Notes: generated from the sequence alone by a model not told the origin. A stretch of DNA of 52,144 bases from a virus (IMGVR_UViG_3300024042_000034:1-52144); one strand, 5' to 3'; numbered from the stretch's first letter, positions 21,331-50,160 are shown. Translations and numbers: made by a program.

Positions 21331-21378
21331 TTCTTTGTTAGAGATCAAATCGGTTCTTTTGCCCTTCCCCGATTCGAT
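21331..21378 (-). promoter_or_regulatory. Repeated leader element, copy A (hairpin with AGGGCAA loop + TCTCTAACAAAG)
   Basis: Minus strand ATCGAATCGG-GGAAGGGCAAAAGAA-CCGATTTGAT-CTCTAACAAAGAA just before the major tail ATG. Confidence 0.7.
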
Positions 21379-21398
21379 AGTTAATATTCTATTTTTTA

Positions 21399-21839
21399 CT
21401 AGCTCGTGATATCTGTCCGAAGGAAATTATAGTATACTTGGATATTGTAAAGCCAATCTGTACCGAACCCTACAAGCTCTCCTGGATTCTTAAGTTTCAA
21501 TGAAAAATCAAAACCATGGTAATCATCAACAGCAGCAACAATTAACTCAGCTATTTCTTCCATTCTTGGTTCATCAGGTTGAGTATTATCTTTAGCAGTA
21601 GGATTTTCAGCAGTTTGATTTTTCAGGTTTGGAACATGAATATTAATATTAAACAAACCTTCCTGCGCTTGGTCCGCGTCATAAGTTGCGGAATTTAAAA
21701 CTAAATCCTCTTTAGTAGAGCCTAAGCGTCGTTGCGCTGTTCTAATCTCCCCTGAAATTAACAAGTCAATTCCTGAGTTTAATAAAACCTGTTTAATATC
21801 TCTTTTTGCTTGGAAATCAGTTTTTATTAACTTCTTCAT
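21399..21839 (-). CDS. Putative tail terminator/completion protein
   Basis: 146 aa; synteny directly upstream of the major tail gene. Confidence 0.6.
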   Translation of the reverse strand: MKKLIKTDFQAKRDIKQVLLNSGIDLLISGEIRTAQRRLGSTKEDLVLNSATYDADQAQEGLFNINIHVPNLKNQTAENPTAKDNTQPDEPRMEEIAELIVAAVDDYHGFDFSLKLKNPGELVGFGTDWLYNIQVYYNFLRTDITS

Positions 21840-22291
21840 ACGCTAATATTATTAAATGCCTGTTCCAAAGATTTTCTAACCTCAGATTCAGCGGTTGCTA
21901 AAACAGATAGACCTTTAGCTTGCACCCAACCTGCATATTCCTTTCCTGCTACTAAGACAATACCCCAACCTTGCGATTCTCTTAACTGAGAAAATGCAAG
22001 TTCTTTACCTTCTTTCATTCCTGGTGCCCTATTACTCCCATAAGGAGATAACTGAAAATCCTCAAACAACACTTTCCCGTCTTTAAAAATAATTCCACCA
22101 GTAGACGAACGTAATTGTCCGGTTAGATCATCATACCCGCCGTCCATTCTCATTCTAGCCCTCTGGATTTTCAGAGCTTCAGCTAGGACAAGTTTGAATG
22201 CTTCAAGCGTCTTACGATCAACTTCATCGTACATTTCCTTTTGGACTTGTTCAATCTCCGCAGGAGTCATATCTAAAACCAATTTTAACAT
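21836..22291 (-). CDS. HK97 gp10-like neck/tail completion protein
   Basis: D.TG.LRSS and EYA..V motifs. Confidence 0.7.
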   Translation of the reverse strand: MLKLVLDMTPAEIEQVQKEMYDEVDRKTLEAFKLVLAEALKIQRARMRMDGGYDDLTGQLRSSTGGIIFKDGKVLFEDFQLSPYGSNRAPGMKEGKELAFSQLRESQGWGIVLVAGKEYAGWVQAKGLSVLATAESEVRKSLEQAFNNISV

Positions 22292-22292
22292 A

Positions 22293-22568
22293 TCACACGT
22301 ACATTACACAATGAAGCTGGCCACGATGAAAAATTGCAACAGTCTCCTGCCAACATATAACTTCACCATTTCGATCATATCCAGTAATCACCTCGTCAAC
22401 TAAGAACATTGGAGAATCAACGGGTAGAGCAATGGTAAACTTCACATCAACCTCAACACCATCCTTCACTTTCTTCATACCAGCGCTTCGGTTGTTTGGA
22501 TAGAAACGGCAAGACAATTCGCTTCCGTCTTCCCTCACCAATTTATCTGGATACTGATCAGGATACAT
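22293..22568 (-). CDS. Putative head closure protein
   Basis: 91 aa; synteny in the head-tail joining cluster. Confidence 0.55.
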   Translation of the reverse strand: MYPDQYPDKLVREDGSELSCRFYPNNRSAGMKKVKDGVEVDVKFTIALPVDSPMFLVDEVITGYDRNGEVICWQETVAIFHRGQLHCVMYV

Positions 22569-22570
22569 GA

Positions 22571-22900
22571 TTAATGAGTATTTGAAAGGTCAACAAATCC
22601 CGATGTAACTGGCGTTTCATCAATCCCCCAACGAAGCAACAACCGTCTACGTAAAGCTTCCAAAGCAGTAGCATCCTGTTGAGTAAGTTGATAATCCAAT
22701 TCCTTGACAGATTTAGGCTGTGTTAAAAGGAAGTCAATCAACCCTGCCCGGGAAAGATCCAATGCTTTAGTCTGATCTTGATTTTGGGGCTCACGTTCCG
22801 CTACAGGATCTAACCCATTTTCCGCCAACATCATTTCAACGGTTGCATCAGGGAACTTAAACCCCATCGACGACACTAAGACTTCCTTTACACTTGCCAT
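22571..22900 (-). CDS. Putative head-tail adaptor
   Basis: 109 aa helical protein; synteny after the capsid genes. Confidence 0.55.
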   Translation of the reverse strand: MASVKEVLVSSMGFKFPDATVEMMLAENGLDPVAEREPQNQDQTKALDLSRAGLIDFLLTQPKSVKELDYQLTQQDATALEALRRRLLLRWGIDETPVTSGFVDLSNTH

Positions 22901-22919
22901 ATTATCTAAATACGGGTAA

Positions 22920-23309
22920 TTACCCTTTCTTTACCAAACCACGTTCAACACACAAATCCAAACGATCCTGAGAGAAATGAGACACATCATCACCTTCAAC
23001 CCATTTCTTGCCAAAGTTGTCTTTATCAGCAAATGGAGAAATGACAATGTATTTTTTCTTTGACGGTTTGGAGTCTCCTTTTACCTTGGCCGCGGCCGCT
23101 GCATCTTTCTGCGCACGTTCGTCAGCTTTAGCTTTAGCATCTTCTGGAATCTCTACCTCATCGCCAACTTTAATACCTCGTTTTTCAAGGTCAGGGTTGT
23201 GTTTTAGATCCGATTCCGTGACGATATGCTTAACCAACTTCGGCCCACCTTGTGGAGAAGCTGAAGGAGCACCTGATTGTGCTCCTGTTTTATTTTCTTG
23301 ATCTGCCAT
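22920..23309 (-). CDS. Hypothetical head-region protein
   Basis: 129 aa, coupled to the capsid stop codon; low-complexity Ala/Lys linker. Confidence 0.65.
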   Translation of the reverse strand: MADQENKTGAQSGAPSASPQGGPKLVKHIVTESDLKHNPDLEKRGIKVGDEVEIPEDAKAKADERAQKDAAAAAKVKGDSKPSKKKYIVISPFADKDNFGKKWVEGDDVSHFSQDRLDLCVERGLVKKG

Positions 23310-24397
23310 TATGCTTGTACGGTTTTAGTGTCCAACAAATAGATTTCGTCGATTGCAGTTACCACCGGAACTACGCGAGCCTGAGCACGTGTAACTTCTT
23401 TCAAGGAAGGTGTAGTTGTACGGAATTTGCTCACAAGAATGTATTCGTTAGCTTTTTGGTACTCAACCCCTGCCTGTTTGTGGTTTTCTTCCGCCAAACG
23501 AGCGTAAACCAATTCCCCAACCATTTGTGATGCAACAAAAACCATTGCCCCAGCTGCGAAAGGCTTAAACGATGTTCGTTTACCATCCTTTTCAACTTTG
23601 ATAGTACGATCAACTTTAATAAAAGTAAAGCCATAACGTTTGGTAACCAAAGTATTCAACTGATCAAAGTCAAGGTTTGGAATTTGCTTGTTGCCAGTGC
23701 TGTTTTGGCTAAAAGAATAGTACTCTTTCGCTTGATCAGTGGCCGCAATAGCATTGATTGTTGCTGTGTCAGTATAAACTTGGGTGATTGTCACACCATC
23801 TGCTGTTGCTTTATCGATAACTCTTTGAAAATCATCAAAAGGTTTCGCATTGACTTTATCTGAATACAGAGCAGCAACACCAAAAAGGTGATCAGCGCGA
23901 TATTTATAATCGCAGCGAACGCCTACGCCTACATTTTCGGGATCATCAACCAAGGTGATACCTGTAGAGAATCCACGTAAGAAAATAGCTTCGTTACGTT
24001 CATAAATTGCTCCAATAGCACGAGGAGTATCTGCAAATAACTTGGCGATTACCTGACCGTTAGTCGCTCCGTTCGCTATCAAAGTGTCCAATTGAGTAAG
24101 CTCTGTTTCATTAAGAGCTAATTCAATCCCCATTTTAGGGATATCACCTGAAGCTTGTGAGATAGAATCTCTAGTCTTCAAAGGAAGGCTAGAATCCATG
24201 GCCACAACATCGGCCGCAACTAGACTAAAAGAAGCAGATAGACTTTCCCATTTACCAGTTACCGAAAAAACTGGCTTTAACATTGTAGTGTGCAAGTAGA
24301 CCAATGGTCTCTTTGTATCGTTCAATGTCTCGACTGTTCGTACAATAATTCCTGGGAAGAATTTTTGTACCCATTGAATAAATAGTGATTTTTCCAT
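23309..24397 (-). CDS. Major capsid protein
   Basis: 362 aa after scaffold and decoration genes; AADVVAMDS.LPLK.R and G.IPK motifs resemble lambda gpE-like capsids. Confidence 0.85.
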   Translation of the reverse strand: MEKSLFIQWVQKFFPGIIVRTVETLNDTKRPLVYLHTTMLKPVFSVTGKWESLSASFSLVAADVVAMDSSLPLKTRDSISQASGDIPKMGIELALNETELTQLDTLIANGATNGQVIAKLFADTPRAIGAIYERNEAIFLRGFSTGITLVDDPENVGVGVRCDYKYRADHLFGVAALYSDKVNAKPFDDFQRVIDKATADGVTITQVYTDTATINAIAATDQAKEYYSFSQNSTGNKQIPNLDFDQLNTLVTKRYGFTFIKVDRTIKVEKDGKRTSFKPFAAGAMVFVASQMVGELVYARLAEENHKQAGVEYQKANEYILVSKFRTTTPSLKEVTRAQARVVPVVTAIDEIYLLDTKTVQA

Positions 24398-24795
24398 TAG
24401 TCTGCTCTAAAATCAATTAAAGGCTTTAATGCTTCCATTGCTTCCGCTGTCGGCTCAATGTAACATGCCTTATAGTTTACCGTTCCCCTCACTAATAATC
24501 CAGCAGCGGGTTTTGCTGTTAATATCGAATTGATCAAAATGTGCGCATACTCGTAACCTGCTGGCAAAGCTGCGTAAGCAGTTCCATCAGTGTTAACCGG
24601 CATGGGCTTATAAATATTTCCTGTCGCTGTATCTTTGATGATAACATGCCCCGCATAAATGACTTTAGGTGTGTAACCTGTCACCTCAAGAGCACGACCA
24701 CCACGAACAGACTGGAAATTGTCAACGATAATCACGGTGTCCCGTGAAGTATCGATGATTTGTTCGTCGTTGTTTAAATTTACTGTTGTTCCCAT
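24397..24795 (-). CDS. Head decoration protein
   Basis: 132 aa between scaffold and capsid; VIYAGHVI motif; synteny. Confidence 0.65.
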   Translation of the reverse strand: MGTTVNLNNDEQIIDTSRDTVIIVDNFQSVRGGRALEVTGYTPKVIYAGHVIIKDTATGNIYKPMPVNTDGTAYAALPAGYEYAHILINSILTAKPAAGLLVRGTVNYKACYIEPTAEAMEALKPLIDFRAD

Positions 24796-24803
24796 TTGAA
24801 TAA

Positions 24804-25469
24804 CTATTGTAATCCAATTTCGCTCATCACAGAATCCAACTCTTCCTTAGTTGCTTCCTTGACTTTGCCATCTTTACCTACACTCGAAAATGGACTATCC
24901 TTCCCCAATTTACTTTCAGCTTGCGTTTGCGTATGGTTAGCGAAGTCGGTTTCTACATCCGTCAGATAAGTATTAAAGTCATCATCAGTAGCAAAGTTCA
25001 TACGACCGAAATCACGTAATACCTTTGCGCTGTAGTCTTCCCCGGCGTCTTTGAGCTTAGCTTGGATGATTGATCGACGGTCATTAATTACCTTCTGCCC
25101 CTCAAGAGCAGCAAGTTTCTCTGTTACCGTTTTATTGCCATCAATAATAGCCTTGGCCCACGCTGGCACTTCTTCACTTGCCGCAGGAGCTGGAACAGGT
25201 GCTGGTTCAGGCGGAGTAGGTTGTGGTGCAGGAGCTGGTGTTTTTAATTTTTCCAATTCCGCTTGTACACTCCGAGCACGATCATCGTCCTTGGCCAAAT
25301 CTGTAAATGGCAAGTATTCATTGATCGCTCCCATCTTTGCTTCCAGTTCCTCTTCTGTTGTAACTTTACCTTCAAATCGTTTTGCCAACTCATCTACACG
25401 AGCTGCTGAAAGTTGAGCGCCCCCAAACTTGGTTTGAAGTAATGCTCTAATTGCTTTTTTGATATCCAT
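24804..25469 (-). CDS. Capsid scaffolding protein
   Basis: Charged helical protein with a Pro/Ala linker and EVPAWAK motif; first gene of the head operon. Confidence 0.75.
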   Translation of the reverse strand: MDIKKAIRALLQTKFGGAQLSAARVDELAKRFEGKVTTEEELEAKMGAINEYLPFTDLAKDDDRARSVQAELEKLKTPAPAPQPTPPEPAPVPAPAASEEVPAWAKAIIDGNKTVTEKLAALEGQKVINDRRSIIQAKLKDAGEDYSAKVLRDFGRMNFATDDDFNTYLTDVETDFANHTQTQAESKLGKDSPFSSVGKDGKVKEATKEELDSVMSEIGLQ

Positions 25470-25537
25470 TTGTCTTTGTTTTTACCAGTGTCTACCCATA
25501 TCGAATGGCCTTTCTAAACAGTTAGAACCCGATATAA

Positions 25538-25601
25538 CAAAAGTACCTTGAAGGGTTGGTGAAGGGAAATAGTCGTGGTTGTCATTCGTTCTGTGGACAA
25601 C
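25538..25601 (-). promoter_or_regulatory. Putative late promoter: TACTTTTG -7 box plus upstream GTTGTC-N12-GACAAC palindrome
   Basis: -7 box 25538-25545; palindrome 25578-25601; 40 bp offset identical to the tape measure promoter. Confidence 0.7.
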
Positions 25602-25647
25602 ATGTGTATTGCGAGTGTGGAAAACATAACGCAACATATCACAAATG

Positions 25648-25678
25648 TTTGGTTTGTTTAAAAAGTTTATTATATTTG
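25648..25678 (+). promoter_or_regulatory. Bacteroidota sigma-A type promoter
   Basis: TTTG (25648-25651), 19 bp spacer, TATATTTG (25671-25678) upstream of 25764. Confidence 0.65.
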
Positions 25679-25763
25679 TGAAGCCTAGGCGCGATGCTTA
25701 ATGGAAACCGTTTTGACAAATGGGGTGTAATGAATATATTTAAGGCAAAAATATATTAACGTT

Positions 25764-26420
25764 ATGAAAAGGGTTTTACTATTATTATCATTAATGGTAA
25801 GTATCAGCGCAGTTTTTAGTCAGCAAAAGAAGATTAATAATGATTTATCTATTTTAAAATCAAAAACAACAGCATGGTTTAAAAATGTATATGTGCCTCG
25901 TAACTTTAAAGACCCTTACTCATATAAACTCATGAATTGCATTGTGTCGCCAATAAGCTTGGCTGAAAAACTTGAAGAAAATGATAGGGATTTACAGTAT
26001 CAATTTGAAATTCTTAAAATAAGAAATAAAGATACCACCGATTATTTTGGAGATTACCAGAAATCGAAAAGAGATGCCTTAAAAGCTAAAGACGATTATG
26101 ACAGGATCGCTAAAAGTTCTGATACGACCGGCCTTAGTCGCCATAAAAAATATTATGACACATTTTTATGGTATTACAATAAGCAAATTAATAATTTTAC
26201 TGAAGTTAACAACTTAGTAAATAAAAATACAGAAATGCAGAAGGAATTAAAAAATATTAAATCAACTGCATCTCCACAAGAATTAAAAGAAACAGTTGAA
26301 TATATTGTATATATTGATGCTTATGGTAAGAATTCACTAGGTAACTCTGTTTTAGGTAAATACTATTATAAAATAGATAAAAGTGGAAAAACGATATCAG
26401 AAGTAAAGATGTTTGATTAA
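25764..26420 (+). CDS. Secreted hypothetical protein (moron)
   Basis: Sec signal MKRVLLLLSLMVSISAVFS-Q; FKDPYSYK and AYGKNSLG motifs; AT-rich; opposite strand to structural genes. Confidence 0.8.
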   Translation: MKRVLLLLSLMVSISAVFSQQKKINNDLSILKSKTTAWFKNVYVPRNFKDPYSYKLMNCIVSPISLAEKLEENDRDLQYQFEILKIRNKDTTDYFGDYQKSKRDALKAKDDYDRIAKSSDTTGLSRHKKYYDTFLWYYNKQINNFTEVNNLVNKNTEMQKELKNIKSTASPQELKETVEYIVYIDAYGKNSLGNSVLGKYYYKIDKSGKTISEVKMFD

Positions 26421-26455
26421 AATTTGGATATATAAAATTTGTTTTGCATTTTTGA

Positions 26456-26601
26456 AATGCGAACAGCGTGGAGTGAGTCCACGAATAATTTATTAACAAT
26501 ATAGCTCAGGCATACCGGTGAAAGTCCGGGAACTCATCGGTACTCCGACGCTGTTCGCGGTGACCTGGGCATTTTTAATATTTTCACTAATGCGAACAGC
26601 G
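26456..26601 (+). ncRNA. c4-like antisense RNA (about 26504-26570) with upstream and downstream target sites
   Basis: Closing stem GCTCAGG/CCTGGGC, inner hairpins CCGG/CCGG and TCGG/CCGA; CGCTGTTCGC (26549-26558) complementary to two copies of AATGCGAACAGCG (26456-26468, 26589-26601). Confidence 0.7.
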
Positions 26602-26835
26602 AAAAATCAAACCCACAAGCTACCATCCAACATAGTAGCTTTCATGACTGCACCATCTGTGCCAGTTGATCAAATCCAAGAAATTCAAACTATTTACAAT
26701 GTCTCCATACGGATCGCCGTTGACATCTACGAAGAAGTTGGCGAGCGTTACACAGATGAAATCTGGGTAGCTGCTGTATGTGGTATTGCTTCACCGGCTT
26801 ACCTTCAGGAAATGAAAGGAGGTTTGTCATGTTGA
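26590..26835 (+). CDS. Hypothetical protein, first gene of the putative antirepressor operon
   Basis: In-frame ATG at 26590 lies inside the antisense target (track start 26518 falls within the RNA structure). Confidence 0.65.
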   Translation: MRTAKNQTHKLPSNIVAFMTAPSVPVDQIQEIQTIYNVSIRIAVDIYEEVGERYTDEIWVAAVCGIASPAYLQEMKGGLSC

Positions 26836-27101
26836 GTACTCAAGAACTACCAAAGTCTATCGTAATGGACAAAGATACCATTGAGGACTTGCACAACCTT
26901 TTGTATCAACTCAATTGGTTAAACGATGTAATGCAGACCGACCGATGTAATTCAATTGTCAATGCCCTACTGATGTCTATTGATGATGAGAACAAAGACC
27001 AAATAACCGAAGCTGTCCAGGCATTAAGCAGAATTAATCTAAGTGATCGGCTTATCAAAAAATCAATTTCCATTTTACAAACAGAAGGAGGTGCTCAATG
27101 A
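26829..27101 (+). CDS. Hypothetical protein
   Basis: ATG at 26829 overlaps the previous gene's end (track start 26778); ATGA-coupled to the Rha gene. Confidence 0.65.
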   Translation: MLSTQELPKSIVMDKDTIEDLHNLLYQLNWLNDVMQTDRCNSIVNALLMSIDDENKDQITEAVQALSRINLSDRLIKKSISILQTEGGAQ

Positions 27102-27853
27102 ATCTGCCAGAATTAAAAACAACAATGTCAAGCCGGGAGATTGCGGAGTTGACAGGGAAAGAACATCGATCTGTGCTGCGTGACATCGATGTATTAAACG
27201 AACACTATGAAAAGTTAGGCATGCACAAAACTGTGCAGGGGTACTATACTCTTCCAGCTACAGGTAAACAACGCCACCGATGCTTTGAGCTAACCAAGAT
27301 TCAAACTATGGATCTAATGACCGGATATAATATTCCGCTTCGAATCAAGGTTAATCGTCGTTGGGAACAACTAGAACACCAACAATCCAACACAGGGAAT
27401 TTGATATCAATGACTGAAGAACTCCAAAGACAACGCCAGGAGTTACACGATGATATGAAGCAATTAGAAGCACGAGCTGAGAAATTGGAAATCATCGAAG
27501 AGTTTATACTGGAATCCATGGCTAAATCTGGGTACCGGCTAGACTCAGCAAAGGCAAATGATACCCCTATCATCCAGGAGCCGAAGCTTACTTGGCAAAA
27601 TTCTTTTATCCTCACCTACGAGCAGTATGTATATGACAACATCACAACTAATATAGATGAATGGTTAAGTCAAGGTACTATCCCAGTTGCTGACTTCAAT
27701 TCTAAATATAAACCAAAGGGGTTAGGTGTTAAAATGTACATTAGAGCGATCAAATGGTATTGTATACACTGTAATATTAGGTTCGTCCCTCATAAAGTTG
27801 TATATCTTACTCAAGCTGGAAGTATCCGATGTCGAATATTTGAATCACAGTAA
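27098..27853 (+). CDS. Rha-family phage regulatory/antirepressor protein
   Basis: MSSREIAELTGKEH..VLRDI and TGY...LR.KV..RW..LE motifs, then a coiled coil. Confidence 0.85.
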   Translation: MNLPELKTTMSSREIAELTGKEHRSVLRDIDVLNEHYEKLGMHKTVQGYYTLPATGKQRHRCFELTKIQTMDLMTGYNIPLRIKVNRRWEQLEHQQSNTGNLISMTEELQRQRQELHDDMKQLEARAEKLEIIEEFILESMAKSGYRLDSAKANDTPIIQEPKLTWQNSFILTYEQYVYDNITTNIDEWLSQGTIPVADFNSKYKPKGLGVKMYIRAIKWYCIHCNIRFVPHKVVYLTQAGSIRCRIFESQ

Positions 27854-27858
27854 ATAGT

Positions 27859-27882
27859 AAAAGCCCTCCTTTGAGGGCTTTT
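27859..27882. terminator. Bidirectional intrinsic terminator
   Basis: AAAAGCCCTC-CTTT-GAGGGCTTTT between convergent genes. Confidence 0.85.
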
Positions 27883-28806: not shown

Positions 28807-28851
28807 AATTTGCGTATGTTAACACAAACTTAAGGAAAAGTTTGGAGAAAG

Positions 28852-28875
28852 AAAAAAGCCCTCGAGTGGAGGGCT
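28852..28875 (-). terminator. Intrinsic terminator
   Basis: AGCCCTC-N5-GAGGGCT followed by a T tract on the - strand. Confidence 0.7.
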
Positions 28876-28881
28876 ATACCT

Positions 28882-29040
28882 TTAATTTCGATAATAGACA
28901 CCTTTCATTATCGCAACACGTCTAAACATTTCTAACGCAAATAATATCCTCCCCCATGCGTAATCCTCTTCTATACTCTCTGACAGATCCGCCATCCTTG
29001 ATAGCTGATCGTTGATAAAATAAAATTCACTTCTTGTCAT
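28882..29040 (-). CDS. Small hypothetical protein (52 aa, absent from ORF track)
   Basis: MTRSEFYFINDQLSRMADLSESIEEDYAWGRILFALEMFRRVAIMKGVYYRN, directly followed by a terminator. Confidence 0.5.
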   Translation of the reverse strand: MTRSEFYFINDQLSRMADLSESIEEDYAWGRILFALEMFRRVAIMKGVYYRN

Positions 29041-29546
29041 ACATAACAAAGAAATCCAATATCAACAGCTTATAATGGGGAATTTTGGTTTAATCAATTG
29101 ATAAGTTGGAGTTATCAATTTTTGTGTACGATCCGGATAGTGTTACATATATACATTGTCATAAATATTTGACAAATTTTAACAATTTTATTTCACTTCG
29201 TTTAACATTATTTAGATTGTTTGTAATAGTTTATTTTGTTTGGATATGTTTGGAGATCACCAATTTTATAAAAACTTTTCTATGGGGCTAAAAAGTGTAT
29301 CTTTTTGTATTTAAATATATCTATTACACCATTATTGTCAACAGTACCGCCTCCAGCAAGTACATCATCATAAAGTTTGTTTATTTGAAAATTATACTTT
29401 AAACTTGTTTCATAAGCATGTTCTAGAGCAGCTGCATGATCACAGTTTTCTCTAGTATATACTTATTATTTGGCACTATTTTTAAACCTTTTATGGGAAA
29501 CAGTAGTTCTAAATATATTATGAGCATACACAAGAGAATTATCGTC

Positions 29547-29693
29547 ATGAAACCTACAATCACAAAAGAGAAGGTAATGGAGGCCATTAACCGAGCTCTT
29601 GCGCAGAAAGAAGAAACCTTGAAATTTTTGAAGGGAGAAATTACTAAGGAAGAATTGGAAGCAAAAGGAGTAAAGCTTGCCAAACCATTATAA
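29547..29693 (+). CDS. Small helical protein upstream of the DUF6169-like gene
   Basis: 48 aa from ATG 29547 (track start 29436); overlaps the next gene. Confidence 0.6.
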   Translation: MKPTITKEKVMEAINRALAQKEETLKFLKGEITKEELEAKGVKLAKPL

Positions 29694-32357: not shown

Positions 32358-32433
32358 ATAATTGATTTGATAATACTTCTATTCAACTTCCACAACCCCT
32401 GACCCAATAGTTCTTTATGCACCTTGCTTTGAA

Positions 32434-32535
32434 AACAACTGCCGCAGGTAAATTGGATGCATGTGACACCCGTCGGCGAAGCTCTATCGCCCCTTTTTGG
32501 TTTTTGATTACCTCACCCCGAAGGGAGCAGTTGTC
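32434..32535 (-). ncRNA. Structured leader RNA of unknown class
   Basis: Closing stem ACAACTGC/GCAGTTGT, CCC-TTCG-GGG tetraloop hairpin, AGGTAA/TTACCT stem, GGCGA/TCGCC hairpin; just downstream of a promoter. Confidence 0.55.
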
Positions 32536-32561
32536 TGTTGTACTTTAGCCTCGCGCTGAAA

Positions 32562-32620
32562 CAAATATACAACATATTTCAAACAAAACAAACATTTTGT
32601 AAACATTTTAAACATTTTGT
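32562..32620 (-). promoter_or_regulatory. Promoter (TATATTTG) with AAACATTT repeat array, putative repressor operators
   Basis: -7 box 32562-32569; tandem AAACATTTT units 32581-32620 matching arrays at 40295 and 50913. Confidence 0.65.
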
Positions 32621-39250: not shown

Positions 39251-39505
39251 ATTCTAGTGTGTTTAAAAATGGCCCTCAAAATAGAGAGCCAAACCGGTTT
39301 TTAAATCCTAATCGCAAACTCAATAAATATCAGTCTGCGCAGTTCCTCTAAAGATCACGGCGCTCTGGGAAGGCATACGACCTTTCTGTGGTACGCCATG
39401 TGTAACGATCCGTCAAGGTGGATCAGTTTAATTCCGTATTGTTGCTGTAAAGTGTGTATGTTCATTTTTAGATCGGGCAAAGCCCTGTGCTTTCGTGAAT
39501 AAAAA

Positions 39506-40150: not shown

Positions 40151-40207
40151 TTCTTTGTTAGAGATTTTTTACTAGCGGTTAGTTAGGATTGCCCTCCTTC
40201 TAACCGC
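40151..40207 (-). promoter_or_regulatory. Repeated leader element, copy B
   Basis: Minus strand GCGGTTAG-AAGGAGGGCAATCCTAA-CTAACCGC then AAAAAATCTCTAACAAAGAA. Confidence 0.7.
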
Positions 40208-40285: not shown

Positions 40286-40330
40286 CAAACTTATTAAACA
40301 TTTTAAACTTTTCAAACATTTTAAACAATT
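40286..40330 (-). promoter_or_regulatory. Promoter (TAAGTTTG) with AAACATTT repeat array
   Basis: -7 box 40286-40293; TAAACATTT-like units 40295-40330. Confidence 0.65.
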
Positions 40331-40379
40331 AGTTTGTAAATAACTGTATTTCAATAAGAAAAAATCACCCGTGGAGTTA

Positions 40380-42941: not shown

Positions 42942-42942
42942 C

Positions 42943-44418
42943 TTATCGTAATTGTATGTCTGTAAATTCTATTGTATTTGCTCCTATCATTCGAGATTGA
43001 ATATCTACCCAAGTAGACTTGTACCCCATTGCTGCTCCGAAAGCGGAAAGAAATCCCTTTTGCACCTGCTCTTTAGCTTTGGCAACACGGGTTGCAAAAA
43101 CCTGCTTCTTCTTCATCTTGGCGTAAATAGCAAGTTCTGCCGGCGTGAGCTCGCTGATCTTCCGGCCGACCAGATTCGTGTAATGACTAGTGACTTCCAC
43201 CAACTCCCCTTGCTCCAATTCCTTTTCTGTAAGTGGTCTTTCGTGTCCGCAGAATGGGCAGATACGCTGAGTGGTTGATATGATGGATTCGCATTCAGGG
43301 CATAGGGCAACAGGGGCAACGCCTTCGCCTTTTTTCCCTTTAGGTGGAGGAGTTTTCCATAGAGTTTTGTAATCCCTATCCTCAAAATACAGTCCATGCC
43401 TTAGATAATTTTCGCCGTAGTCAAGAGTTATAAAATGATTCTTGACACCAAAAATTACACGAGACCCTCTTCCTAATTCTTGCTGATAAACTGGTAATGA
43501 TAATGTGGCATGATTTAATACAACAAGATCAATAGGCTTAAAATCCCATCCTTTACTTAAACTTTTAATGGTAACCATAATGTTAGTCAATCCGAGTTCT
43601 GTAAACTTAGCCATCTCATACCTACCGTGTTCGGTTTTTGAATGATAACATGAAGCTGCAAATCCGTTATCGTTAAGTTTCTTGCTTAATTCATTAGCAT
43701 GTTTTATTGATGCAACAAATATTACACACTTATTGAATGGATATGATCTAAGATCTTCAAACAAACCATCGTATACCACAGAATTGTTAAATGCTATATC
43801 CTGAGATTTCTCAGTATACTCTCCATTCCTAACTTCCAATAGATCAAGGTTTGATCTAGTACGTGCAATGTGCTGATATGAACATAGAAACCCCATCTGT
43901 ATCAATTCGTCCACTTGAGGCCCTTCTACCAAATCATTATATATTTCAGGCAAATGAGGCGAATACTTGCAGTAGGGAGTTGCAGTAAAACCAATTAAAT
44001 ACACACCAGCGTCCCTTAGTTGAATTAATGTATCATACCCATTTCTAATGTGACATTCATCGACCATAACTATCAATTTACGGCCCAGTGCTTTCAATTG
44101 TTCTAAGATTAAAGGTCGCCTTTGAAGTGTTTGAATCATTCCAACGTAGCACTTACCTAAGCTTATTGATCTATGTTTAACTTTTGAGTTTATCTCTATA
44201 CCACTACATTCATCAACAAGCTGGTCATAAATTTTTCTCGTTTCTGACAACACTAACACAGTATTACCTTTAATAATACCTCGGAACGCTATATTGCTAA
44301 TTATTACAGATTTACCCCCGCCAGTAGGCGCATGAGCTATAATGCTTTGGTTTTCCTTTAAAGATTTGACGATCCTAGATATCAAATCTTCTTGCCAATC
44401 GTATGGTTTCTTAATCAT
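42943..44418 (-). CDS. SF2 (DExH) helicase with C-terminal zinc finger
   Basis: APTGGGKS, DECH, GFTAT, Q..GRG.R, CPEC...CPFC. Confidence 0.92.
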   Translation of the reverse strand: MIKKPYDWQEDLISRIVKSLKENQSIIAHAPTGGGKSVIISNIAFRGIIKGNTVLVLSETRKIYDQLVDECSGIEINSKVKHRSISLGKCYVGMIQTLQRRPLILEQLKALGRKLIVMVDECHIRNGYDTLIQLRDAGVYLIGFTATPYCKYSPHLPEIYNDLVEGPQVDELIQMGFLCSYQHIARTRSNLDLLEVRNGEYTEKSQDIAFNNSVVYDGLFEDLRSYPFNKCVIFVASIKHANELSKKLNDNGFAASCYHSKTEHGRYEMAKFTELGLTNIMVTIKSLSKGWDFKPIDLVVLNHATLSLPVYQQELGRGSRVIFGVKNHFITLDYGENYLRHGLYFEDRDYKTLWKTPPPKGKKGEGVAPVALCPECESIISTTQRICPFCGHERPLTEKELEQGELVEVTSHYTNLVGRKISELTPAELAIYAKMKKKQVFATRVAKAKEQVQKGFLSAFGAAMGYKSTWVDIQSRMIGANTIEFTDIQLR

Positions 44419-45131
44419 AGCAATCTTAGATTTGATTTATTAGGGCGCTCACCCCGAAGAAATTTGTATAATGTAGACTGAGAAATACAATTCATTATTG
44501 CTGCCTCCCGAATAGTTGAATAGATCGTCCCAGTTTTTGTGTTCACAACTGATTTGGCTTTAGGATTGGCCCCACCTAAGAAAATAATCTTTTTAGATTC
44601 TGACATCCTGCGCTTAGACTGATCGCTGTGCTTCTTACCAAAGAATAAGTTGTCCGGCCCACTTTTACCTATACAGTCATTTATCCTCCTATAGTTGGCA
44701 TATGCATACTTCAACCCGTCTGATATAGCCTTTTTATGAGATTTGGGATATACATAGTATTTCCTTGCTTCTGATATCTTTGCTTTAGTCTCATCAGATA
44801 CAACAATACCCTTTGCATCAAGACATAGATTACATAAATTAGGATCATCCTTAAAAAGATCAATAAATAGTTGCTCCCTCTCGTCCAATCTTGAAATATC
44901 GCAAATATCAATTTCAAAAAAATAAGGGACGCCATATTTATTGAAGGCATTTTGAAGCTTAATGTTGCTATGTTTGCCTTTTCTTAGCTCACTTATATGT
45001 TGCCGATATCGCGCAAATAAGTTAACGGATTGCCCTACATAAAACTTTTGGAAGTCACCCCAAAGTATTAAGTAGATACCTGAAACACCTTCGTGTTCTT
45101 TGTAGGATATTTTTTTCAGCGTAACTTTCAT
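44415..45131 (-). CDS. GIY-YIG homing endonuclease with NUMOD3/NUMOD1-like domains
   Basis: SGIYLI...FYVGQS..L..R..QH; FFGKKHS..SK..MS; YSTIREAA. Confidence 0.9.
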   Translation of the reverse strand: MKVTLKKISYKEHEGVSGIYLILWGDFQKFYVGQSVNLFARYRQHISELRKGKHSNIKLQNAFNKYGVPYFFEIDICDISRLDEREQLFIDLFKDDPNLCNLCLDAKGIVVSDETKAKISEARKYYVYPKSHKKAISDGLKYAYANYRRINDCIGKSGPDNLFFGKKHSDQSKRRMSESKKIIFLGGANPKAKSVVNTKTGTIYSTIREAAIMNCISQSTLYKFLRGERPNKSNLRLL

Positions 45132-45209
45132 GCCACTACCTCACTTTCCGGTAGCGCGCAAAAAATCAATACAGTATTGTACATGTTCAAATTCTTTTAT
45201 GCCCTTGGG

Positions 45210-45268
45210 CTTTGTTAGAGATTTTTTAATGAAGCGGTGAAAGGGTTTGCCCTCCACAGTCACCGCTT
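45210..45268 (-). promoter_or_regulatory. Repeated leader element, copy C
   Basis: Minus strand AAGCGGTGA-CTGTGGAGGGCAAACCCTT-TCACCGCTT then AAAAAATCTCTAACAAAG. Confidence 0.7.
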
Positions 45269-45281
45269 TTAGTAATTGTGA

Positions 45282-45650
45282 CTAGAACGGTAGATCGTCG
45301 TCGTCGTCAACCGTGGCAACTGGTGCCGAATTACTCTGCAATGAGAAATCCTTGATATTGCCCAAGATCGGTTGTGCTGCCTTCAAAGCATCTGGCGTTT
45401 CTTTCAATGATTTGTACACTTCACTTGGAAGCCCCTTGCTGATAAATCCATTTTGGCCGTATTGATCAGTTTCCTCGCGTACAGTCACACGAACATCCAT
45501 ATATACAGCGCCGTCTTTTTCAGTTAAGTGGTTGCCATCTATTGGCAGGAAAATACCACGAACGATTCCTGATTTACCTTTATTTTCAAGGATTACGGAT
45601 TGAGGGAGTTTTGTTAGGGCAATTGACCCGTTTAAATTTCTGTTAGACAT
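45282..45650 (-). CDS. Putative single-stranded DNA-binding protein
   Basis: 122 aa with an acidic DDDDDLPF tail; in the replication module. Confidence 0.7.
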   Translation of the reverse strand: MSNRNLNGSIALTKLPQSVILENKGKSGIVRGIFLPIDGNHLTEKDGAVYMDVRVTVREETDQYGQNGFISKGLPSEVYKSLKETPDALKAAQPILGNIKDFSLQSNSAPVATVDDDDDLPF

Positions 45651-45686
45651 TTTTATAAAAATTATTGAGTGAAAAAATTGTTATTA

Positions 45687-46040
45687 CTATGCTGTTTGCT
45701 TACTGTGGCGCTGCTCCTCTTCCACGTTATCCATAATATCCGAAATAGTTCCCGGTGCTAGTCTGGAAAAGAAATCCATCGCGCGATATAGTTCCGCAGG
45801 CGCTTCGAATTGCACTGTGTCATTGTCCTTTGGTTTGAAGTGCTTTCGGAACTCTTTGAGCAAGAATGCGGAACTTTCCCGTGCTTTCCGCAGATGATTA
45901 TTCATTAGCGTGTTCCAAAATTTAATCGGCTCGAAGAAACATTTGTCAACGTTTTCCGCGCACTGCAAGAAAAGGTAATACGCATTGATCTGATAATACA
46001 TTTCCTCGGCTTGGTCTTGTGTTAGGTGGACTTGGTTCAT
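45687..46040 (-). CDS. Hypothetical protein
   Basis: 117 aa, ATGA-coupled. Confidence 0.7.
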   Translation of the reverse strand: MNQVHLTQDQAEEMYYQINAYYLFLQCAENVDKCFFEPIKFWNTLMNNHLRKARESSAFLLKEFRKHFKPKDNDTVQFEAPAELYRAMDFFSRLAPGTISDIMDNVEEEQRHSKQTA

Positions 46041-46606
46041 GGTGTAACCTCGCTTTCTTTCTTCAAGTAATCCCTCAACTTTGGGAGAAACTTAGACAGC
46101 CAAACATTTGTCAATGGAGGATCATTTACGATGAAATACCATGGTTCTGAACGTAAACTAAAAATCATTCTTCGGAATACTTCTTCTCCTTCGTAACAGT
46201 AGTATTCGTGTAAATCCAAATTGCTCATGGAACTAATGAACTCTTCGGAACAACTGGTTTGTCTTTGAATTCTATTAAGTTCGTCTCTTAGTTCTCTATC
46301 TCCTTCAGGGGAAATGTACCAAACCCAATCCGTTTCTTCTTTTATGAACTTCCTGACTTTAGCCATTGTCTTTTTCATATTTATTGGGCCGTCACCATCA
46401 CGTTTACCAAGTTTGTTAATCAGGTAGCCATTGTCTGTTTGAAGAATGAATTTTGAAAGGTTATACCCTTGGCCCATACAACTCCAATAGTATGACAGAT
46501 TAATATCACGATCATCATTTGAAATAATGATCTTACCTTTCCCATCTTCGTAATCTTGCAGGATCACGTCTGTGTAATCGATTCGGAAGTGTGTTATATT
46601 CCCCAT
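46037..46606 (-). CDS. Hypothetical phage protein
   Basis: 189 aa, coupled to neighbours. Confidence 0.7.
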   Translation of the reverse strand: MGNITHFRIDYTDVILQDYEDGKGKIIISNDDRDINLSYYWSCMGQGYNLSKFILQTDNGYLINKLGKRDGDGPINMKKTMAKVRKFIKEETDWVWYISPEGDRELRDELNRIQRQTSCSEEFISSMSNLDLHEYYCYEGEEVFRRMIFSLRSEPWYFIVNDPPLTNVWLSKFLPKLRDYLKKESEVTP

Positions 46607-47778
46607 TACGCCGCCCTCCTTTTTCCAGCGCGTGCCACAGCCTTATATTTAGGCTCATACGACACGTCCTTATGTTCAACCATTTCACCAGTTGCTTTAG
46701 CCTGCTTTTCAGCAAACATGCGCATCTGATCAAGTTTCACTTTTGCAAGATCTTCGACAGAGGCACCGCTATTGGTCAAGAAATACTCTATCACAGCACG
46801 CCACCCATCCACACTGCCAACCGACACTGCATACGATTCTACAGTCTTAGGAGCTTCCTCCTGCCGGTTCGCCTGTGCAACCATTACAGTAACATTCGCC
46901 TGTTGCTTCGCCTTGGCAGCTTCGTCGGCAGCACGTTTCTCTGCTGCAATACGAGCTTCCTCAGCTTCCTGCTCCTGATTTTGGCGAAGTTCCTCAGCCG
47001 CTTTATTATCAGCGATGCCTTGTTCTAATTCGGCAACGCGGGCAGGAAACATTTCCAAAATGTATTCTGCGTATTTGGTTACCTCGCTAGTAAAATGAGT
47101 TGAGCAAGTAGCGAAACGCTCCGCCGTTCTTACCTCGCCGATCAACTCTTCCGAGCCAACCAACGAAATAGTTTCCCACGCTTCATTTGAAAGCTTTGCA
47201 TTGACGAAACTTGCGATCGCTGCCCTAGCATCCTCTGCATTTTCCAAATCGAAATTGCTGTACACTTGTAGAATTGTGCGCTTAGTTTCTCCAAGCAATG
47301 CCGCATACCCATTCCTTAACTGAGTCTCCAAATTGGCAATGTCATCGATTCGCTTTTGTTTTGCGGCAAGTTCCTCCCGTTCTTTGCGGGCCGCTTCGGC
47401 CGCTTCTTCTGCGTGAATACGGGCGGAAGTGTCTCTCAAGCGCTGGATGGGTTCGTATAAATCTTTCCCCAACTCATTTTCGATCGCTGTGAATGCTTTG
47501 ATGAACGCGTGAGCTTTTTCGGTATATATCGCGCGAGTTTCATTCATGAACTTGACCGCCTTCTTCGCGGACACTTGCCAGTTCATCAATTCATCATCCA
47601 TTTCTTTAGGTAACTTGTCGCCAAATTTCTTGGCCTTCTCAATTAGCGCAGCTTGCTTAGTAGCATATTTCACAAGCATATTGGATGACGTTGTATAAAC
47701 AGCACCTGCACTTTGCAGGTCTGTTTGGGACAGGTGTATTGCTAGACCTGTGGCTTGTTGCTGAGATGTGTTGTTCAT
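46606..47778 (-). CDS. Coiled-coil protein of the recombination module
   Basis: Ala/Glu-rich helical protein; ATG 47778 is ATGA-coupled (track start 47832). Confidence 0.7.
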   Translation of the reverse strand: MNNTSQQQATGLAIHLSQTDLQSAGAVYTTSSNMLVKYATKQAALIEKAKKFGDKLPKEMDDELMNWQVSAKKAVKFMNETRAIYTEKAHAFIKAFTAIENELGKDLYEPIQRLRDTSARIHAEEAAEAARKEREELAAKQKRIDDIANLETQLRNGYAALLGETKRTILQVYSNFDLENAEDARAAIASFVNAKLSNEAWETISLVGSEELIGEVRTAERFATCSTHFTSEVTKYAEYILEMFPARVAELEQGIADNKAAEELRQNQEQEAEEARIAAEKRAADEAAKAKQQANVTVMVAQANRQEEAPKTVESYAVSVGSVDGWRAVIEYFLTNSGASVEDLAKVKLDQMRMFAEKQAKATGEMVEHKDVSYEPKYKAVARAGKRRAA

Positions 47779-47981
47779 GATCTCGAATATTTTTTGCTTT
47801 CGTTCTGTTTTGCTTCTTCCACGCTGAACCATTTTCCTTTTTGGTACGCAACCAAACGTCTTCTTACTCCGTGGATAATCAATGTATCCGAATCAGATAA
47901 ATACTCATAATTGATTATCATATATCCAAGCTTACTTGCTTTAAGAAGTAATTCTTCAATTTTATTTTGCTCTGCTTTCAT
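47775..47981 (-). CDS. Hypothetical protein
   Basis: 68 aa within the operon. Confidence 0.6.
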   Translation of the reverse strand: MKAEQNKIEELLLKASKLGYMIINYEYLSDSDTLIIHGVRRRLVAYQKGKWFSVEEAKQNESKKYSRS

Positions 47982-47984
47982 ATC

Positions 47985-49112
47985 TTAAAACGGTAATGGT
48001 TCAGAAACTGGTTCGTTAATAACTTTAGAGCTGGTGTCGGTATTACCGATAGCAGGTATCTCGCGTTTCACGATGCCCCTCTGTATCGGCTCCATTGTCT
48101 CCTCCGCAACCCCAAACTTTCTTCCAACAAATTCACCAATACCCTCCCGACGGATAACCGAGGATAGCCCCTGCTCACGATCTGCAATACTGAACACACC
48201 ACCAATAGTTGTATAAACTTTGGATTCTGCCTTACTTGCATACCGGATATCCGCAAGCGTCATAACAGCTTCCACCTCTGCTGTGGTTATCTCCCCTGTC
48301 CAATCTTTGAGATTATACGAAGGAGTTTCACCACGCCACTCTTTAGGCGACCAGTTATATGCAGCATCTAAAGGAAGATCCGGGAAATTTTCTTCCCACA
48401 ACTGGCGCTCGGCTTCAAGTTGTAAACCATTGCTGCGGTAAAAACCGTGACGACCTGATTTGAAGTTTATGATAGCACGGATCTGACGAGGGACTTTGCA
48501 TTCGCGAGGCTCACCTTTACGCGGTCCGGACTTATATGGGTTTTCGTAATCCAGTCCATCCTCTTGGATAGTCATATTGCAAACCAAGTCGATCAATGTG
48601 CCGTAGCCCCGTTCTGAAAGTAGAACATACTCAATGCCCAATGGCACCACTTGGTAATCCAAATAGAACTGAATGAATGCGCATAGGTCATTGCGCAATT
48701 TTTCCGCCCACTCTTTAGTTTCCGGCTGGTAAAAGTTGTTTTCCGATAGATAGTTCTCAACGACTGCATCCACTTCCTCAAAGTCGTAGTGTTGGTTAAT
48801 TAGGAATTTACCGATTTCGAGATGGAGAAGCGTGCCATATTCTTGAGCAATCTCCAATAGACGGCCAGCTTCTTTAGTACCATGTTTGCAATACCATTCC
48901 AATAATGGTTGCTCCATCGGACTACACTGGTTGATCGCTGTAGTAAGGCTGGTATACAATCTCAATGGTGATTCACATGGTTTGCAGTCTTCATTTAGAC
49001 GGATATATGATCGGCCAGCTCCAAAATTCACACGGCCAACTTTATAATTAGGTAGGCGCAACGCTGTTTCGTTGAACCAGTCTGGTAATATAATTTCGAA
49101 TGTGATTGACAT
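47985..49112 (-). CDS. PD-(D/E)XK-like exonuclease-fold protein
   Basis: S.TT.I, L.EW, GT.LH, E..L.S, G..IDLV, INFKSG, LQL motifs (track start 49160). Confidence 0.7.
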   Translation of the reverse strand: MSITFEIILPDWFNETALRLPNYKVGRVNFGAGRSYIRLNEDCKPCESPLRLYTSLTTAINQCSPMEQPLLEWYCKHGTKEAGRLLEIAQEYGTLLHLEIGKFLINQHYDFEEVDAVVENYLSENNFYQPETKEWAEKLRNDLCAFIQFYLDYQVVPLGIEYVLLSERGYGTLIDLVCNMTIQEDGLDYENPYKSGPRKGEPRECKVPRQIRAIINFKSGRHGFYRSNGLQLEAERQLWEENFPDLPLDAAYNWSPKEWRGETPSYNLKDWTGEITTAEVEAVMTLADIRYASKAESKVYTTIGGVFSIADREQGLSSVIRREGIGEFVGRKFGVAEETMEPIQRGIVKREIPAIGNTDTSSKVINEPVSEPLPF

Positions 49113-49123
49113 TGGTTTAGTTA

Positions 49124-49303
49124 TTAAGGGTAAATAAAATTTTGTCCGCAAGTAGTGCATCTATCAGTTTTAATGGATACAGAAATCCAATTGCACTCCT
49201 TTCTGTAAGGACATTCGGATATTGAATCCTCATAATCCTCTTGAATCTGTTTATCACGAAGGCAATCTTCGCAATCTCCAAAACACCATCGCGTAGTACA
49301 CAT
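49124..49303 (-). CDS. Small Cys-rich protein (59 aa, absent from ORF track)
   Basis: MCTTRWCFGDCEDCLRDKQIQEDYEDSISECPYRKECNWISVSIKTDRCTTCGQNFIYP; starts 2 nt after the previous stop. Confidence 0.65.
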   Translation of the reverse strand: MCTTRWCFGDCEDCLRDKQIQEDYEDSISECPYRKECNWISVSIKTDRCTTCGQNFIYP

Positions 49304-49304
49304 A

Positions 49305-50087
49305 TTACTTCACCTCCTCCACTTCTTGAAAATCCTCAGTTCCACCAACTGCCGGCCCTGATCCCAACTGCAACAAACTACCGCTAGTAATCATATTAGT
49401 TGTCAACCGAGAAAGATCCGCACCGCTTTCAACGTAAGCCCGTACAGCTTCGATTGTTTCCTCAGTAAAGTTTGGTATCAATTGAACTATTGGGTAGTTC
49501 TTCGCCATTCCAGGGGTGTAAGACTGTACCTTTTTCACCATCAAGCTAAATGGGAATCCGATAATGCTGCCCGATCGAGCCATAACCATATCGAATGCCT
49601 GAACAATACTAGGGATTGTTGTCTCTTTGGCTTTCGTAGAGAAAGTCCAATAACCAAGTATTCCCTTCATCTCCAAAAGAACAAACCTAAGGGTGAGTGT
49701 ACGTGCGAATAACTTACGAATCGCTTTCACGCGAGGATCGTTTGATGACAACCCTTCAACATATCCGCCTTTTCCGTCCTTGCCGCCTGTAGCATCCCAC
49801 ACAGTAAACACAGAGCCGTCACCCCATCCAAGGCGTTTACCTTTGTCCCATGCTTCGAATTGTTCGTTGCAAACCTCCTCGATATTATTGGATACGAATG
49901 CCACCTTTAGTTCCGTAGGTTTAGCACCAAATAGGTTGTGGAACCTTGTTGCAAAATCTCCACTGGCGCGGAAATAATCTAATGATGTAGGTAAACCGCG
50001 TTCGGTCTTCATTCCTACTTTAATTCTACCGATTTCGGGTAGCGTCCTGCCTTGCTGAACATTTCCCGTTGAAATACGTCCTTTCAT
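49305..50087 (-). CDS. Gp3-like (recombination directionality factor-like) ssDNA annealing candidate
   Basis: IGRIKVG...G.P..LDYF, L.F.L..G..G.W...T motifs; paired with the exonuclease-like gene (track start 50123). Confidence 0.6.
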   Translation of the reverse strand: MKGRISTGNVQQGRTLPEIGRIKVGMKTERGLPTSLDYFRASGDFATRFHNLFGAKPTELKVAFVSNNIEEVCNEQFEAWDKGKRLGWGDGSVFTVWDATGGKDGKGGYVEGLSSNDPRVKAIRKLFARTLTLRFVLLEMKGILGYWTFSTKAKETTIPSIVQAFDMVMARSGSIIGFPFSLMVKKVQSYTPGMAKNYPIVQLIPNFTEETIEAVRAYVESGADLSRLTTNMITSGSLLQLGSGPAVGGTEDFQEVEEVK

Positions 50088-50089
50088 TT

Positions 50090-50160
50090 TCTTTGTTAGA
50101 TTCTTTGCGGGCTCCTCGCCCATTTTCTACTAGCGCTTTAGTTTGCCCTCTGCGGCGCCT
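50090..50160 (-). promoter_or_regulatory. Repeated leader element, copy D
   Basis: Minus strand GGCGC-CGCAGAGGGCAAACTAAA-GCGCT, a small GGGC/GCCC hairpin, then AATCTAACAAAGAAAATG. Confidence 0.65.

Follow-up and report, generated by a model that had tools for sequence, protein, structure and literature searches.

What signal do four short, similarly built intergenic stretches of a Sphingobacterium provirus carry, and at which step of gene expression does it act? The DNA that raises this question, IMGVR_UViG_3300024042_000034 (52,144 nucleotides (nt), called the window throughout), holds at four places a hairpin with GGGCAA in its loop, followed by the ten-base box TCTAACAAAG. We take all four to be copies of one cis-acting RNA element, specific to the lineage of this siphovirus-type Sphingobacterium prophage; it probably controls the expression of the genes downstream of it. 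A sequence-only reading of the window had described four intergenic - strand sites with a hairpin, AGGGCAA and a box ahead of a start codon, had taken the conserved loop and compensating stems as pointing to an RNA-level signal of early and tail operons placed in co-oriented leaders, and had recognized no described family. The sites, the conserved structure, its placement and the lack of a described family are borne out by the analysis set out below; the likening of the box to boxA is not.

The box and its fixed-loop hairpin form a repeated cis element in the untranslated stretches ahead of key genes. Exact copies of the box number four in the window, all on the - strand and all intergenic, and each is preceded by a hairpin that presents GGGCAA in its loop (Table 1); TCTCTAACA is found at three of the four sites. 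The elements share the orientation of the genes and are located in transcribed leaders and intercistronic spacers. Chance is a poor account of this pattern: in 100 dinucleotide shuffles the exact box occurs 0.25 times on average and never reaches the observed four, and the bipartite pattern AGGGCAA-N12-42-box has four matches on the reverse strand and none on the forward strand, with a reversed-pattern control matching neither. Relaxing the box to one mismatch yields no extra site (4 found, 5.0 expected), and AGGGCAA by itself is only mildly enriched (12 copies where 6.9 are expected; 5 of 100 shuffles have at least as many). Within the phage, no antisense partner for the box was found with one mismatch allowed. 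When the four sites are folded, the hairpin is part of the minimum-energy structure, and the box and the stretch up to the AUG are unpaired at all four. The fold z-scores of sites 1 to 4 are -2.0, -2.8, -3.1 and -0.8; the site 4 hairpin is thus weak by itself.

Evidence for a conserved fold comes from ten related Sphingobacterium prophage contigs, taken whole (G001-G010). These carry zero to four exact boxes each, those in hairpin context always on the gene strand, and their copies are found at the same four junctions, with a fifth class directly after a promoter; across the element cluster, a genome has about three to five copies. The tip of the element is a stem of 2-5 base pairs (bp) that closes the hexaloop RGGCAA. 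In 30 distinct copies anchored on the loop, GGCA is invariant (by construction), the next base is A in 29 and the preceding base is A or G; in a set of 40 distinct copies, RGGCAA is kept throughout save for CGGCAA in two copies of G008. Around this same loop stand about 14 unrelated stem sequences with pairing kept, as exemplified by the tips AGGA-GGGCAA-TCCT, GGGGG-AGGCAA-CCCCC, CGAGG-AGGCAA-CCTCG and GATCG-GGGCAA-CGGTC, and at least five pairs enclose the loop in 29 of the 30 copies.

Quantitatively, the mean folding energy of the 30 copies is -13.6 kcal/mol, compared with -6.6 for 455 other RGGCAA windows from the same 11 genomes, and an enclosing helix of at least five pairs with GGCA unpaired is seen in 22/30 elements and 46/455 controls. 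At the three apical pairs, 70% of cells are paired (48.9% in shuffles), 18 cells are changed on both sides (4.0 in shuffles) and the covariation score is 0.419 (0.108 in shuffles); none of 500 shuffles reaches these values, and slid registers score lower. Two-sided changes were counted on per-site alignments and covariation on the apical pairs, since internal loops that differ by 1-3 nt prevent MAFFT from registering the outer stems across sites. Within orthologous groups, which are small and among which site 4 aligns poorly, 16 of 42 consensus pairs are changed on both sides. At site 2, for instance, GCGGTTAG/CTAACCGC is replaced by GCGGCCAG/CTGGCCGC, and among site 1 orthologues (group site1a) pairing is kept through two-sided changes at pairs 16-35 and 17-34.

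One relative departs from the common form. At sites 2 and 4 of G008 the loop has become CGGCAA and the box CTTAACAA, the two having changed together, whereas site 3 is canonical and site 1 keeps only TAACAAAGAAT after a different hairpin. This leaves GGCAA (loop) and TAACAA (box) as the invariant core. The general layout is the hairpin, then 0-33 nt, then the unpaired box (TC)TCTAACAAAG(AA). This layout is kept while the flanking genes differ among relatives: two types of tail protein are found at site 1, and a GIY-YIG gene stands at site 3 in the window only.

Several variants of the layout are seen. In G006 (L180, about 9939-10030), a second exact box is paired with an 11-bp hairpin of loop GAGGCAAA in reverse order, box then hairpin, within the first 20 codons of the gene after site 2. 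The P2 leader of G003 (L161) has two tandem GGGCAA hairpins: the first, of 19 bp, adjoins the -7 box, and 60 nt further on stands the site 2 hairpin. Box-like TAACAAAG or TAAAAAG also occurs 5' of the hairpin at site 2 of G003, G006 and G007 and at site 1 of G007, so that similar A-rich words stand on both flanks of these hairpins.

How far does the element extend beyond this group? The exact box occurs 17, 5 and 13 times in three host genomes, where the reversed control matches 20, 23 and 14 times, and is thus not enriched there; in the host genome that holds a canonical-box prophage, 4 of the 17 exact boxes are within 27 kb of prophage. Two pattern scans over 2.9 million viral contigs gave at least 120 stretches and 54 loci, respectively. 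In the second, 18 of 44 distinct sequences were true elements and the remainder fell in coding sequence; among the scan matches listed, true copies came from at least 15 contigs of one phage cluster only. Four look-alike contigs, with a single box each, were rejected as chance matches. The element is phage-specific and confined to one small cluster of Sphingobacterium phages. At the Gp3-like junction of Croceibacter phage P2559S there is no element, nor room for one, because the Gp3-like gene begins only 2 nt after the preceding gene; the putative tail protein downstream of site 1 had no match in the phage collection. Rfam gave no match at gathering score over the window, and at E values up to 5 over four 3-kb loci it gave three weak matches, none at an element. 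In the portions available of the literature on Bacteroidetes phage antitermination, on boxA and NusB and on Sphingobacterium prophages, no description of such an element was found. We thus regard it as a lineage-restricted element that has not been described previously.

Its position relative to transcription signals bears on its function. Bacteroidota sigma-A promoters follow the consensus TTG, 17-23 nt, TAnnTTTG. No match of this type lies within the elements at the four sites, and the elements are not promoters. Three such matches, P1 to P3, are found on the gene strand, with further ones on the + strand. The site 2 hairpin begins about 70 nt downstream of the expected P2 transcript start, and in the P2 and P3 leaders of relatives the -7 box is 20-88 nt upstream of the loop. 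Near sites 1 and 3 there is no promoter, and the stretches downstream of them offer few terminators; between P1 and site 4 stand the first three early open reading frames (ORFs), an arrangement like that of nutR, which follows cro in lambda. The strongest terminator-like site of the gene strand (39291-39270) is about 850 nt downstream of site 2, past two small genes. The elements themselves do not resemble intrinsic terminators of the gene strand, as their 3' flanks are A-rich and a terminator scan flags none of the four in the window; in the relatives G007, G004 and G005, a T-run does follow the site 3 hairpin and gives it the look of a terminator. Before every strong host-type promoter there are also 2-4 tandem (A)ATGTTT(A) repeats, which could be UP-like elements, or operators through which a CI-like repressor shuts all promoters together.

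A further copy, found in relatives, demonstrates that untranslated RNA leaders, too, can carry the element. In G001, G009 and G010, which are identical over this stretch and are counted as one evolutionary instance, a GGGCAA hairpin begins 5 nt after the P3 -7 box and is followed by the box TCTAACAAGAAA. No conserved ORF start follows: the nearest ATG lies 72 nt further downstream, with reading frames of 39, 39 and 14 codons in the three genomes, respectively; these copies are the three exceptions, among 39 scanned, to a box-ATG distance of 1-12 nt. Beyond the element are tRNA genes: tRNA-Glu about 310 nt past it in G001, with tRNA-Asp after, and tRNA-Asp at about 300 nt in G009 and about 160 nt in G010. 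Unlike these relatives, the window has no tRNA genes downstream of P3. Its own P3 leader (32358-32561, -) is untranslated over about 200 nt, is common to G002 and in part to G004, and begins with GCGCGAGGCTAA, apparently a degraded copy of the site 4 hairpin. Rfam gave no match for this leader, and its fold z-score is -0.3.

The window is a provirus, annotated by PHROGs and Pfam as a siphovirus-type temperate phage with genes mostly on the - strand. The early genes diverge from a CI-like repressor gene and are followed by those for the Gp3-like protein, an SSB-like protein, a helicase, a primase-polymerase and small genes; the late order is terminase, portal, capsid, putative major tail protein, tape measure, tail proteins and endolysin. 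The 179-amino-acid (aa) protein after site 1 is probably the major tail protein, because it is encoded ahead of tail chaperone-like genes and the tape measure gene. The Gp3-like protein has close relatives in the genomes of Sphingobacterium corticibacter, S. spiritivorum and S. chungjuense, which identifies the host as a Sphingobacterium (Bacteroidota). In an RNA-labelled run the region is present as one 123-kb contig identical to that of the DNA run, with no ends, strand or level visible. Site 3 precedes a mini-ORF of 18 codons, MYNTVLIFCALPESEVVA (45128-45184, -), whose TGA overlaps the ATG (45131) of the next gene as ATGA; a near-identical peptide is found in G008 and other relatives. That next gene (44415-45131, -) encodes a GIY-YIG and NUMOD3 protein of homing-endonuclease type, is absent from all ten relatives (tblastn) and sits as an insertion between the mini-ORF and the helicase gene; its initial codons resemble the start of the gene after the mini-ORF in G008. 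Directly 3' of the putative major tail protein gene, a hairpin CCCC...GGGG followed by TTATTTTTA (20700-20760, -) may act as an attenuator and so fix how much tail tube is made relative to the proteins encoded downstream. On the + strand of the left arm are a C-5 cytosine methylase, a RelA/SpoT-domain protein and a SRAP peptidase (1555-2457, 3544-4647 and 5557-6243), the second being of the small alarmone synthetase type and possibly a defence or toxin module.

Table 1. Positions of the element copies and of associated features; coordinates refer to the window unless a relative is named.
Feature	Position	Strand	Details
Site 1, linker motif GCTAGTAAAAAAT	21391-21403	-	upstream of the hairpin
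Site 1, hairpin	21344-21378	-	stem ATCGAATCGG 21378-21369 / CCGATTTGAT 21353-21344, 10 bp with one G-U pair; loop of 15 nt with AGGGCAA 21365-21359 (GGGCAA 21364-21359); begins 20 nt past the TAG stop (21401-21399) of the preceding gene
Site 1, box TCTCTAACAAAG	21333-21344	-	ten-base box 21342-21333; 6 nt before ATG 21326 of the 179-aa protein
Site 2, hairpin	40175-40207	-	outer stem GCGGTTAG 40207-40200 / CTAACCGC 40182-40175, 8 bp; inner stem AGGA/TCCT closing hexaloop GGGCAA 40194-40189
Site 2, linker GCTAGTAAAAAAT	40176-40164	-	between hairpin and box
Site 2, box TCTCTAACAAAG	40164-40153	-	ten-base box 40162-40153; 12 nt before ATG 40140 (GTG 40143) of a 99-aa acidic zinc-ribbon-like protein
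Site 3, hairpin	45232-45268	-	outer stem AAGCGGTGA 45268-45260 / TCACCGCTT 45240-45232, 9 bp; tip GG/CC with A-A mismatch around GGGCAA 45252-45247 (AGGGCAA 45253-45247), alternative AGGG/CCCT; begins 13 nt past the TAG stop of the SSB-like gene
Site 3, box TCTCTAACAAAG	45210-45221	-	ten-base box 45219-45210; 25 nt before ATG 45184 of the mini-ORF
Site 4, hairpin	50132-50159	-	outer stem GGCGC 50159-50155 / GCGCT 50136-50132, 5 bp; tip AG/CT with A-A mismatch around GGGCAA 50148-50143 (AGGGCAA 50149-50143); begins 3 nt past the TAA stop of a 37-aa ORF (50163-50276)
Site 4, linker GCTAGTAGAAAAT	50134-50122	-	
Site 4, small extra hairpin	50121-50109	-	GGGC-GAGGA-GCCC
Site 4, box TCTAACAAAG	50100-50091	-	3 nt before ATG 50087 of the Gp3-like protein (PF18897)
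Promoter P1	50911-50904	-	Bacteroidota-type match
Promoter P2	40315-40286	-	TTG ... TAAGTTTG, preceded by ATGTTT repeats
Promoter P3	32591-32562	-	Bacteroidota-type match
(A)ATGTTT(A) repeat regions	50904-50960, 40286-40340, 32562-32620	-	
(A)ATGTTT(A) repeat regions	25640-25678, 29215-29252	+	
Terminator-like site	39270-39291	-	8-bp stem with 5 GC pairs, then TTTTT
CI-like repressor gene	51016-51780	+	PHROGs/Pfam
Early genes	first start 50801	-	divergent from the CI-like repressor gene; PHROGs/Pfam
Putative major tail protein gene, 179 aa	20787-21326	-	assigned by gene position
tRNA genes of relatives (Glu, Asp, Met)	G001 (L156 8045-8327), G009, G010, G002 (L158 18265-18337), G004 (L163 1776-2088)		downstream of P3

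At which level, then, does the element act? The tRNA-leader copy and the strong terminator after site 2 lean to the level of transcription; the nearness of the box to the AUG leans to that of translation. A conserved loop on a free stem, together with a conserved single-stranded box, indicates recognition by a protein, and we infer that RNA rather than DNA is the active form and that a bound partner may affect termination. Among the explanations considered, a nut-like loading site for processive antitermination is ranked first, with a probability of about one in three, because it accounts for the largest number of features: the placement after promoters, the terminator after site 2, the hairpin and T-run after the tail gene, the copy in a tRNA leader (where antitermination of the rrn type operates), a hairpin-box order like that of rrn, and the phage specificity. 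The nut sites of lambda and P22 and the rrn leaders likewise combine a conserved-loop hairpin of free stem sequence with a short single-stranded box, downstream of promoters and upstream of terminators, a placement seen here for site 2 (between P2 and 39291-39270) and for the tRNA-leader copy. The GGCAA loop recalls the GACAA of P22 boxB; the loop here is a hexaloop.

The element is transcribed within 5' leaders just after host-type promoters and within the intercistronic spacers of long - strand operons; under antitermination, a phage factor would read the hairpin loop on the nascent RNA. The box, pyrimidine-rich and then A-rich, would provide a second contact, possibly as a degenerate boxA (as in lambda) for host NusB and S10. 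Together the two contacts would convert RNA polymerase to a termination-resistant form that could pass the terminator-like site 39291-39270 and the hairpin behind the tail gene, and could cross untranslated regions, the tRNA unit of the relatives among them. The host Nus machinery is to be expected, because the rrn leaders of two Sphingobacterium species share the boxA-like GTTCTTTAAAGAA, about 150 nt before the 16S gene. If an unrecognised phage protein reads the RGGCAA hexaloop and the UAACAA box and so reprograms polymerase along the early, tRNA and tail operons, Bacteroidota phages would here have their first nut-like, factor-dependent system of processive antitermination; we hold this to be possible rather than probable.

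A number of observations weigh against antitermination, beginning with the box. NusB-NusE read 8 bases of boxA, according to the portions available of one study (PMC3177189), and the host rrn leader carries GTTCTTTA(AAGAA). The phage box matches this core at 3-5 of 8 positions (5/8 in the best register, AATCTCTA, at sites 2 and 3; 3-4/8 at sites 1 and 4), and its invariant TAACAA falls outside the octamer; we therefore do not count it as a boxA. The likeness to E. coli boxA (CTCT..AACAA) to which the sequence-only reading had pointed is real but requires a two-base gap. Among 39 copies scanned in the family, 36 have the box 1-12 nt before an ORF-opening ATG, a nearness that antitermination does not predict, though tight gene packing could yield it. 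The intercistronic hairpins abut the upstream stop codon (3-20 nt) and the hairpin-box spacing ranges from 0 to 33 nt, so that the two parts could be independent modules. Lambda has two nut sites, compared with 4-5 here, one of them deep in the late/tail operon, and few convincing gene-strand terminators are found besides 39291-39270. G-U counts are equal in sense and antisense (34 and 34), and the sense fold is the more stable one in 24 of 40 copies; these figures do not tell which strand folds, and the assignment to sense RNA rests on orientation and context. PHROGs, Pfam and NCBIfam reveal no N-, Q- or NusG-like or other RNA-binding protein, an absence that carries little weight because N-like proteins are too short and too divergent. 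An Atlas look-up of the first early ORF returned only unnamed viral clusters below 0.9, and presence or absence across relatives singles out no gene as the trans-acting factor.

The position of the box is best explained by a translational operator or enhancer, in which a phage or host RNA-binding protein at loop and box would repress or activate initiation downstream, amounting to a small post-transcriptional regulon in a phylum without Shine-Dalgarno pairing. The operators of T4 gp43, of RegA (which controls several messages) and of RNA-phage coat proteins pair a sequence-specific-loop hairpin with a single-stranded stretch at the start codon, and T4 gp43 is thus a precedent for hairpin plus flank. 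The unpaired box and AUG-proximal stretch at all four sites fit such an operator, as does the fact that AAAGAATTTGAAC stays beside the ATG even where a 12-nt insertion splits the site 3 region. The layout also parallels that of the SAS and ESAS motifs of Cluster K mycobacteriophages, as far as the accessible text of their description goes (PMC3203893). We rate translational control as a close rival of antitermination, somewhat less likely than it. Unlike the phage operators, the tRNA-leader copy adjoins no start codon, with none for 72 nt and a small ORF there that is not conserved; the spacing drifts (1-25 nt from box to ATG, 0-33 nt from hairpin to box); only 4-5 of about 70 genes have the element, the major capsid gene not among them; and complementarity of box or loop to 16S rRNA is limited to short 8-9-mers with G-U pairs, figures that have no chance control. 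The hairpin at the stop codon and the variable, A-rich spacer are best explained if operon junctions hold two modules that act independently. One would be a hairpin for processing or stability, protecting the 3' end of the upstream message or the 5' end of leaders, with cleavage perhaps by a hairpin- or AU-specific endoribonuclease in the A-rich linker; the other would be a preferred translation-start box abutting the start codon. The hairpins 3-20 nt past stop codons at sites 1, 3 and 4, the copies in early, middle and late operons, the terminator-like hairpin and T-run of G007, G004 and G005, and the tRNA-leader copy, which suits precursor processing, all agree with this. T7-like RNase III sites are likewise dispersed hairpins in the leader and between genes of early and late regions; here, however, the loop is conserved, and the stems, at 8-14 bp, fall short of the length typical of RNase III substrates. 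Conservation of the loop is not required of a stability hairpin, yet no other feature is as conserved as RGGCAA, and hairpin and box co-occur far more than separate modules would require, as the joint change of loop and box at two sites of G008 illustrates. Two separate modules are rated slightly below translational control, again as a close rival.

Two further explanations are unlikely, the second more so than the first. The signal could reside in DNA, with the box as an asymmetric stoperator-like protein site or the whole cassette as a joint for module recombination, and the hairpin incidental. An exact 10-12-base box in one orientation between genes does resemble the L5 stoperators, as given in the available part of the mycobacteriophage report (PMC3203893), and both the equal G-U counts on the two strands and the retention of the element beside differing genes are compatible with DNA. 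Compensating stems around a fixed loop nonetheless argue for a folded single strand rather than a protein-bound duplex, recombination joints leave per-base loop conservation unexplained, and the candidate promoter operators (the ATGTTT repeats) are unlike the box. Alternatively, the hairpins could terminate antisense transcription of the + strand, on which they are followed by GCTTTTTTT (site 2), TTTTT (site 4) and TTTT (site 3); the T-run is missing at site 2 of G003, G006 and G007 and at site 1, no + strand promoter faces the sites, and neither the loop conservation nor the box is explained.

Among described systems, SAS and ESAS have the closest architecture, to judge from the available text of the sources. 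As here, a short, asymmetric, phage-specific motif lies near the start codons of a subset of genes in one orientation, is absent from the host, is kept across related phages beside different genes, and in many copies has an inverted repeat just upstream. SAS has the consensus GGGATAGGAGCCC with the Shine-Dalgarno core AGGAG and 11-19 copies in the non-structural half only, and ESAS consists of 17-bp inverted repeats with arms conserved in sequence; the authors favour DNA binding, because departures in the ESAS arms do not support RNA pairing (PMC3203893). In contrast, the element here has the box TCTAACAAAG, a conserved loop and arms that differ between copies in a compensating way, and one of its 3-5 copies stands in the tail operon. 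The accessible portions of the two accounts still describe the function of SAS and ESAS as unknown (PMC3203893, PMC12699233).

For the biology of these phages, the element offers a compact, conserved, protein-sized target, a six-base loop and a ten-base box, at the junctions of the early, replication, packaging, tRNA and tail modules. To our knowledge, gene control in Bacteroidota phages has been little characterised, and Bacteroidota initiate translation without Shine-Dalgarno pairing. The element is easy to mutate and offers a concrete way to a new RNA-binding regulator; it also allows Nus-type antitermination, translational operators and processing to be compared as the means by which these phages set their timing. 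In a mosaic phage family it marks the boundaries between modules cleanly, and it adds to the hairpin-plus-box regulatory sites of phages.

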